Shown here: positions 7,931 to 8,272 of the stretch, one piece after another | Position numbering within the stretch: position 1 is the first letter of the stretch | Layout of the letters: each line of letters starts with the position of its first letter | IMG/VR virus record: IMGVR_UViG_2851938318_000009 | Location: 1 to 42,689 of that record | DNA: 42,689 nt | Origin: a virus | Lineage: Duplodnaviria > Heunggongvirae > Uroviricota > Caudoviricetes | Direction: 5' to 3' (one strand) | Translations under genes and position numbers: made by a program | Notes under the pieces: generated by a model | Database searches by the model: none | The model's input: only the letters and a program-made list of their open reading frames with translations | Told to the model about the DNA's origin: nothing

Positions 7931-8169
7931 ACAGCCTTCCCCTGAATAAATTAACCGCCACTTGCCATTCCGTACAGAAGTCGGATATCCTTCGCCCGAA
8001 AAGCATGAAACACATTTCTGCCATGCTAAAGAGAAACCCCGGTATCAGCAGATACCGGGGTTTTCTTTCATGCCCACCGATAATCCTGTTGGTTAAAACC
8101 GGTAATGGCATAAAAATTCTGAATATCTTCACATTTTCACACACTGACTGTGGCGCTTATAATTTCGCT

Positions 8170-8268
8170 GCGTTAGTGTTTTTTTGCCCGAGTAACAAAA
8201 ACAACTCCTTAACATTGATCTTCATTTGTCTGTCCCCGCAGCTCCGCGATCACTGCGGGATTTTTTTA
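8170..8268 (+). ncRNA. candidate small RNA in the I-J intergenic insert
   Basis: TTCACA-N16-TATAAT promoter-like pair (about 8136-8163), about 95 nt without an ORF, then hairpin CCCGCAG...CTGCGGG plus U7 (8235-8268); orientation opposite to the tail operon. Confidence 0.3.
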
Positions 8269-8272
8269 TGTT

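Follow-up and report, generated by a model that had tools for sequence, protein, structure and literature searches.

Here we follow up the gap between two tail genes of a lambdoid prophage, a 42,689-nt stretch of DNA (IMG/VR record IMGVR_UViG_2851938318_000009, positions 1 to 42,689) that was analysed whole and is called the window below. Our reading, to which we give a probability of roughly 0.88, is that PasB, a small RNA (sRNA) of prophages, is encoded in the right part of the gap between tail genes I and J (window 8113-8267, plus strand), where its gene forms a self-contained moron. The element has already been described and is not new; the window presents it in its most common genomic setting. 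PasB (pathogenicity-associated sRNA B) was identified in enteropathogenic Escherichia coli (EPEC) O127:H6 E2348/69 by Hfq RIL-seq, in which interacting RNAs are ligated and sequenced, and by Northern blot (Pearl Mizrahi et al. 2021, Sci Adv, PMC8550237). There it is an 83-nt RNA encoded at NC_011601.1 1466343..1466261 (minus strand) in prophage PP6, between E2348C_1436 and E2348C_1437 (PMC8550237 Table S6). When the two loci are aligned, the mapped RNA corresponds to window 8185..8267 on the plus strand (83 nt), and 82 of its 83 nt are shared with the E2348/69 copy without indels. The sole substitution inside the RNA lies at window 8211, nt 27 of PasB, which is A here and C in E2348/69. This nucleotide has been named as the difference between PasB and PasB-2 (Zhu, Shabalina and Storz, bioRxiv 2026, 10.64898/2026.05.13.724894), and A at nt 27 thus fits the PasB-2 allele. 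The published PasB Northern probe, AATCCCGCAGTGATCGCGGAGCT, is the exact reverse complement of 8240-8262 and has its only match in the window there, and the U-tract of seven residues agrees with the published one (PMC8550237 Table S5). The resemblance extends beyond the RNA: the PP6 junction and the window are collinear, with no indels, from upstream of the promoter to the I stop codon. Both copies lie at an I-J junction, in E2348/69 between a tail assembly protein gene (I) and gpJ, antisense to both genes, with the same promoter and a terminator ending 5 nt from the I stop codon. Apart from nt 27, they differ in the sequence on the J side, where E2348/69 carries an 85-bp left module and the window the 187-bp "long" type discussed below.

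Expression has been documented for the E2348/69 copy. The Northern blot gave a band at the predicted size, about 83 nt, and in an hfq deletion the PasB level changed by a log2 fold change of -6.8 under the activating condition and -2.4 under the non-activating one (PMC8550237). PasB was more abundant under the non-activating (non-virulence) growth condition, and RIL-seq linked it to 37 partners; chimeric fragments numbered 258 in the activating and 1820 in the non-activating condition (PMC8550237). These data bear on a preliminary description of the window, made from its sequence alone, which had seen in the gap a small independent transcription unit oriented against the tail operon, either an sRNA or an antisense regulator. 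The unit holds for the right ~155 bp, which are PasB, while the left ~180 bp, with the first of two hairpins, form a separate module. The sRNA is borne out by Northern blot and Hfq RIL-seq; a cis-antisense role is not, as the 37 RIL-seq partners point to action in trans.

The tail genes of the prophage lie on the minus strand. Gene J (4433..7930, minus) and gene I (8273..8953, minus) were confirmed with Pfam through their GpJ domains and Lambda_tail_I, respectively, and the gap between them, put at about 340 bp in the preliminary description, is 342 bp long (7931-8272). Two mechanical open reading frames (ORFs) span it, one of 77 aa on the minus strand (7911..8144) and one of 141 aa on the plus strand (7906..8331), and neither has a PHROG match. 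The stretch of about 95 nt first described as free of ORFs measures about 98 nt and likewise holds no credible ORF. Rfam searches of the whole window at gathering thresholds, and of 7800-8400 at E values up to 10, returned nothing relevant in the gap; the best Rfam 15 score in 7800-8400 was 27 bits against a cut-off of 48, below the gathering threshold, for an unrelated Streptococcus family. By megablast the 342-bp gap is 100% identical in PPompW prophages and in phage ASU11. Of 5426 complete E. coli genomes, 1611 contain a match to the gap, ST131 and O157:H7 strains among them, and none of the 40 matches listed has a RefSeq annotation beneath it.

Upstream of the RNA stands the near-consensus promoter seen in the preliminary description, TTCACA-N16-TATAAT (8136-8163, plus strand). 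It matches 11 of 12 consensus positions, and no other site on either strand of the 42.7-kb window scores as high. By first-order Markov simulation, 0.35 such sites would be expected per window on average, or about 0.003 per 342-bp gap; thus, one falling within the gap is unlikely by chance. To compare the promoter among relatives, we retrieved loci with the AUCUUY motif and the terminator as anchors, without regard to the promoter, and pooled them with earlier loci to a set of 52 distinct sequences; since the earlier loci had been retrieved with a pattern containing ATATCT, the ATATCT form of the spacer is over-represented in this set. The -10 hexamer TATAAT (8158..8163, plus strand), supported by both the consensus scan and the family comparison, is well kept, with TATAAT, AATAAT, TATCAT, GATAAT or CATAAT at the fixed offset in 48 of the 52. 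The -35-like hexamer TTCACA (8136..8141, plus strand) belongs to this allele and is not conserved in the family, being replaced in 18/52 distinct promoters (by TCCGGC, TTCTGT, TTTGCA and others). The best conserved promoter element instead lies just upstream, a box AAAATTCTGA-N6-TCACATTT at 8113..8136 (plus strand) with half-sites at 8118-8122 and 8129-8133. Both half-sites are present in all 52 distinct promoters, in an alignment anchored on them, the 6-nt spacer takes five forms, and the distance from box to -10 is constant across the family. The box occurs once in the window; it takes an equivalent position in L003, L133-L135, L204, L210 and other loci of the comparative set, and recurs before every unit of the tandem arrays described below.

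The box resembles a site for CRP, and binding of this regulator is a putative function only. The form AATTCTGA-N6-TCACATTT matches 14 of 16 non-spacer positions of the CRP consensus. A TGTGA-N6-TCACA site would be centred at -41.5 in a class II promoter and at -61.5, -71.5 and so on in a class I promoter. The box centre (8125.5) lies at -44.5 from a start at 8170 and at -59.5 to -61.5 from a start at 8185-8187, and it is not at the canonical class II CRP position relative to the TATAAT promoter; given this geometry, we keep the CRP-like box only as a lead. Spot 42 is repressed by CRP. In the EPEC data it rises about fivefold under the activating condition (PMC8550237), and the opposite changes of PasB and Spot 42 are compatible with activation of PasB by CRP, which is only a hint.

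At its 3' end the RNA closes with a Rho-independent terminator (8235..8267, plus strand), in which the stem CCCGCAG/CTGCGGG (8235-8241 and 8253-8259) encloses an 11-nt loop and is followed by an A and seven T residues (8261-8267). This is the second hairpin with a U7 of the preliminary description, present as stated; the T7 ends 5 nt, not 4, before the I stop codon (8273-8275), as in E2348/69. To follow the RNA through the family, we gathered 35 distinct variants from IMG/VR and GenBank loci and used 16 of them in a consensus-fold alignment. What all 35 have in common is the terminator stem, the AUCUU motif and the geometry of the promoter, while the remaining body varies. The consensus fold (RNAalifold) consists of a weak 5' hairpin, in which the U-run pairs with an A-rich stretch, an unpaired core and the terminator. 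The core (8194..8223, plus strand) is predicted to be single-stranded in single-sequence and consensus folds alike, and three short plus-strand elements can be told apart in it. An (ARN)4 A-rich stretch, AACAAAAACAAC (8194-8205), reads as the triplets AAC-AAA-AAC-AAC, and other alleles keep an ARN-like A-rich stretch of different sequence, for example AAGAAUAAU or AAAAAUAAC. Such triplets ahead of a terminator with a U tail characterize class II-type Hfq sRNAs, of which PasB is a candidate. CUCCUUA (8205-8211) resembles the anti-Shine-Dalgarno sequence of 16S rRNA, and AUCUUC (8218-8223) is the conserved core motif; AUCUU occurs in 35/35 variants and UCCUUA in most. From these features we infer that the three elements are likely to serve as Hfq distal-face and seed regions. 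Zhu et al. (2026, 10.64898/2026.05.13.724894) placed the predicted PasB seed directly upstream of the terminator; our seed proposal derives from conservation alone.

The picture that we favor is the following. In the lysogen, host RNA polymerase would transcribe PasB from its own sigma-70 promoter, opposite to the silent tail operon, and would be halted by the intrinsic terminator (8235-8267) 5 nt before the I stop codon. Hfq would bind the product, an RNA of 83 to 98 nt, presumably at the 3' hairpin with its U7 tail and at the A-rich ARN stretch, and the unstructured core of this RNA (CUCCUUA, AUCUUC or both) may then pair in trans with host and prophage mRNAs, possibly at ribosome-binding regions. 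The hairpin in the left half of the gap would most likely act on tail-sense RNA, or on the two strands alike, and not within the sRNA unit. The parts of this scheme that we infer are the exact 5' end, the seed, the sites of contact with Hfq and the regulator at the upstream box.

Several observations weigh against this account. The expression evidence belongs to the E2348/69 copy, which is one base apart, and not to this strain or allele, to which it is carried over by sequence identity. In the searchable literature we found neither a validated PasB target or seed nor any functional study later than that of Pearl Mizrahi et al., who themselves gave no target motif for PasB (PMC8550237). The terminator stem is unchanged in 16/16 aligned variants, and a stem that never varies gives no covariation information; covariation is limited to two pairs, both in the 5' hairpin, and the folding energy of the whole RNA is ordinary (z about -0.9). 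The published 5' end is also awkward, as it maps to 8185, 22 nt past TATAAT and beyond the normal start distance. Two explanations are equally possible. Transcription may start near 8170, about 7 nt past TATAAT, giving a 98-nt RNA that is later processed; the primary transcript would then have a 5' extension (8170..8184, plus strand) that contains a conserved GCGTTA and a U-run, and GCGTTA with its T-run is kept across the 52 distinct promoter variants. Alternatively, the true -10 may be another conserved element, TANNNT (8174-8179), with a start at about 8186.

The left half of the gap calls for a different reading. We treat the sequence from the J start codon to the PasB promoter (7931..8112, unstranded) as a putative junction module of the "long" type. 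It contains a palindromic hairpin with flanking A-rich and T-rich runs (8030..8069), terminator-like on both strands, in which CCCCGGTATC (8037-8046), a loop AGCA and GATACCGGGG (8051-8060) are followed by TTTTCTTTC. The arms form a perfect 10-bp palindrome, with z = -6.8 for folding of the plus strand and z = -4.9 for the minus strand. The first hairpin with U-tract of the preliminary description is therefore real (8037-8060) but, being a perfect palindrome with T-rich runs on both strands, bidirectional and not a plus-strand element only. We think that the consensus scan missed it because the flanking A- and T-tracts lengthen the stem. A weak promoter-like site, TTGCCA-N18-TATCCT (7962-7991, plus strand, 9/12 matches), lies upstream of it.

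Junctions that bear PasB fall into two types, with the 187-bp long module of the window or with an unrelated "short" module of 84-94 bp, carried by E2348/69 (85 bp), PhiR12 phages, Stx2c phages and Sakai. The hairpin of the short module, CAGGCAYCC-N4-GGRTGCCTG, has its T-run (TTGTTTTT) on the minus, tail-sense strand and is seen in L003, L002, L005-L007 and the IMG/VR short-type junctions. One position of the short-type stem covaries between C-G and U-A, and two variants form a G.U pair on the minus strand only, with a C.A mismatch on the plus strand. The preliminary description held I and J of lambda to be essentially contiguous; they are in fact 60 bp apart (I ends at 15444, J starts at 15505), and the gap, which has no sRNA cassette, contains a GC-rich hairpin with a T-run upstream of J on the tail-sense strand (NC_001416 about 15462-15485; L012 962-985). 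This hairpin is the likely functional counterpart of both the window hairpin at 8037-8060 and the short-type hairpin, even though the lambda and window sequences are unrelated and, of these two, the window hairpin alone is a perfect palindrome flanked on each side by T-rich runs. Since lambda and short-type junctions have a tail-sense hairpin in the equivalent place, we read the hairpin of the window as probably the junction hairpin of the tail operon, here symmetric, and not as the terminator of an sRNA unit. The long module itself is at least 99% identical in 1441 of the 1450 E. coli records that have it, and in IMG/VR loci the PasB promoter follows it at a fixed +57 (+56 once) wherever downstream sequence is present. 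Neither blastn against phages and E. coli genomes nor a scan of viral contigs for the hairpin pattern located it beyond this junction, and it always stands beside PasB. The idea that it is a decayed PasB unit was rejected on inspection, as the box, the spacing and the body motifs are lacking. As separate observations, a 47-bp deletion in L074 takes out exactly the palindromic hairpin, and in L029 the left module is interrupted by an IS element, an insertion of about 1.3 kb.

How far could the gap be explained otherwise? Consensus matches alone prove nothing, and with about 0.35 sites of 11/12 expected per window a promoter and terminators could be chance matches in plain spacer; yet RNA from a copy one base apart has been detected by Northern blot and RIL-seq, so that this view is contradicted by published expression data. 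Comparison of I-J junctions across relatives, which the preliminary description had proposed, speaks against spacer as well: over dozens of diverged alleles the box, the -10, the motifs and the terminator are conserved while the neighboring sequence is replaced wholesale, and we regard plain spacer as highly improbable. Scarcely more credible is a small protein, as annotated in the phage ASU11 record (ASU11_gp9c, hypothetical protein; minus strand, across 7911-8111). The two mechanical ORFs, of 77 aa (minus) and 141 aa (plus), would allow one, but neither belongs to a PHROG family, RefSeq annotates nothing there in the 40 matches listed, and the minus-strand ORF crosses the palindromic hairpin, overlaps the J start and vanishes in phages with the short module. 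A mainly cis-acting PasB deserves more attention and is still unlikely. It would pair with the I-J part of the late tail mRNA in lytic growth and alter its processing or the I:J ratio, and in its favor the gene lies without exception at the I-J junction and antisense to the tail operon, with a complementarity to the late transcript that is perfect by construction. Against this, the RNA is clear of both coding sequences and of the J ribosome-binding site, the J start being about 240 nt from its 5' end, and its 37 RIL-seq partners were found in trans in a lysogen with a silent tail operon. The body diverges freely while short motifs stay, as expected of a seed-driven trans-acting RNA, and in this prophage the tape-measure gene is split by an IS91-family insertion whereas the PasB unit is intact.

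A last alternative concerns the left module, which might encode a second plus-strand sRNA of about 70 nt (about 7998-8069), transcribed from TTGCCA-N18-TATCCT and ending at the first hairpin. We consider this improbable, even though the hairpin with its U-tract has the shape of a strong plus-strand terminator (z = -6.8 for the 74-nt stretch), the 9/12 site lies at a suitable distance, and other prophages have 2-4 tandem sRNA units at the I-J junction. Promoter-like sites of this quality occur at chance frequency (3 found against 1.5 expected), the module has none of the box, -10 spacing and body motifs common to PasB-like units, and its hairpin is equally good on the minus strand, while the equivalent hairpins in lambda and in short-type junctions read as terminators on the tail-sense strand only. 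No published RNA maps there, but the E2348/69 and Sakai data sets come from strains with the short module and cannot show it. The identity of at least 99% in 1441 of 1450 records, which counts in favor of this alternative, at the same time leaves no covariation information. The reading of the left module as a junction module, next to a PasB gene confined to 8113-8267, is accordingly the one that we retain.

PasB shares much with other prophage sRNAs. AgvB, AsxR, HnrS (EcOnc10-12), PasA, PasC, PasD, STnc100 and DicF are, like it, short Hfq-associated RNAs with their own promoter and intrinsic terminator, lie in lambdoid prophages, are made in the lysogen and have host mRNAs or sRNAs as targets. 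Their location differs: AgvB, AsxR, PasA, PasC, PasD and STnc100 lie near the lysis region and late promoter, reports on HnrS place it no more closely than within the late genes, and DicF belongs to the dicBF operon. None of these other moron sRNAs has been reported between tail genes or has sequence similarity to PasB, which itself has no Rfam family. Closer relatives may be found among the orphan Hfq-binding sites of enterohemorrhagic E. coli (EHEC) Sakai. EcOnc22, EcOnc23 and EcOnc24 are such plus-strand sites, detected by Hfq cross-linking and analysis of cDNA (Hfq-CRAC) in Sp15, Sp14 and Sp11, respectively (Tree et al. 2014, Mol Cell, PMC4104026 Table S2). They are mutually homologous, give about 85 nt on Northern blots and are destabilised in an hfq deletion (PMC4104026 Table S2). 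On NC_002695.2 all three peaks fall within I-J gaps, opposite to the tail genes, and these gaps hold diverged PasB homologues (L133 1623-1862 in Sp14, L134 1692-1931 in Sp15 and L135 1673-1912 in Sp11). The Sakai units share with the window the box, the -10, the AUCUUC motif and the CCCGCAG/CTGCGGG terminator; unlike the window allele, they have a diverged promoter and body, with TCCGGC at the -35 position. The 2014 Sakai coordinates run about 137-146 nt below those of NC_002695.2, a shift measured at AgvB (1.94 Mb) and not at the EcOnc loci. Uncorrected, the EcOnc22-24 coordinates would fall on the left module, a placement that we rejected, as the AgvB-calibrated shift puts the peaks on the PasB homologues. 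EcOnc22-24 are thus, to judge from sequence and position, probably members of the PasB family. Neither PasB paper makes this link, and EcOnc is unmentioned in Zhu et al. (2026).

Some junctions hold more than one such gene. In 7 of 221 sampled junctions (L210, on the reverse strand at about 700-1515, L204, L206, L190, L196, L214 and L227) we found 2-4 PasB-like units in tandem, which differ in their cores and are each equipped with a box, a -10 and a terminator. Zhu et al. (2026, 10.64898/2026.05.13.724894) give 28 kb as the minimum distance between pasB copies, and the tandem arrays were therefore apparently unseen there. From the arrays and the Sakai loci one could generalize that PasB belongs to a larger cassette family, not described so far, in which between one and four sRNA genes like PasB, with differing seeds, stand in tandem at lambdoid I-J junctions, EcOnc22-24 included, each under a CRP-like box TCTGA-N6-TCACA and so under cyclic AMP (cAMP)-CRP control; this is a tentative proposal, which we hold to be rather doubtful as a whole. 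In a promoter pattern scan of one genome per species, only E. albertii and two short contigs labelled Asaia and Streptomyces were found, and no spread outside Escherichia was seen; we take the Asaia- and Streptomyces-labelled contigs to be E. coli contamination.

Other insertions were observed at the same junction in relatives. In E. coli CFSAN004176 (L008 62-589) a sodC moron (Cu/Zn superoxide dismutase) adjoins the PasB promoter in the PasB orientation. In 12 other sampled loci (including L189, L194 and L212) the normal promoter is missing, as the PasB body directly adjoins, at GTTAATG, DNA with a short stretch in common with the sodC-side flank of L008. In L009 and L043 an insertion sequence (IS), probably of the IS3 family, sits directly after the PasB -35 region.

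Elsewhere in the window, the tape-measure gene (region 10632-15702) is split into two minus-strand ORFs, 13825-15702 and 10632-12074, between which lies an IS91-family transposase ORF (12413-13645, plus strand) with Y2_Tnp and Zn_Tnp_IS91 domains. The prophage is probably tail-defective, with an intact PasB unit. Further sRNA genes are present. AgvB (31601-31662, plus strand), which matches the Rfam consensus perfectly, lies directly against STnc100 (31663-31853, minus strand) in the arrangement described as a convergent sRNA pair for EHEC prophages. Two identical matches to the ALIL pseudoknot (32569-32685, plus; 38565-38681, minus) each overlap a 296-aa ORF (32611-33501, plus; 37749-38639, minus). 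These pairs mark two inverted IS copies, probably of the IS3 family, which bracket about 6 kb containing DicF (36570-36621, plus strand).

PasB is found in about 30% of complete E. coli genomes and has neither an Rfam family nor a listed RefSeq annotation, so that it will turn up anew in scan after scan. As a general insertion site for morons, the lambdoid I-J junction can take up sRNA genes, sodC or IS elements. What was seen besides comes from relatives and amounts to leads, not to findings on this window, and the comparative set offers such leads on PasB regulation and targets in the CRP-like box, the anti-Shine-Dalgarno-like and AUCUUC motifs, the tandem arrays and the link to EcOnc22-24. 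If true, the shared CRP-like box would place a set of prophage sRNAs under catabolite (cAMP-CRP) control.

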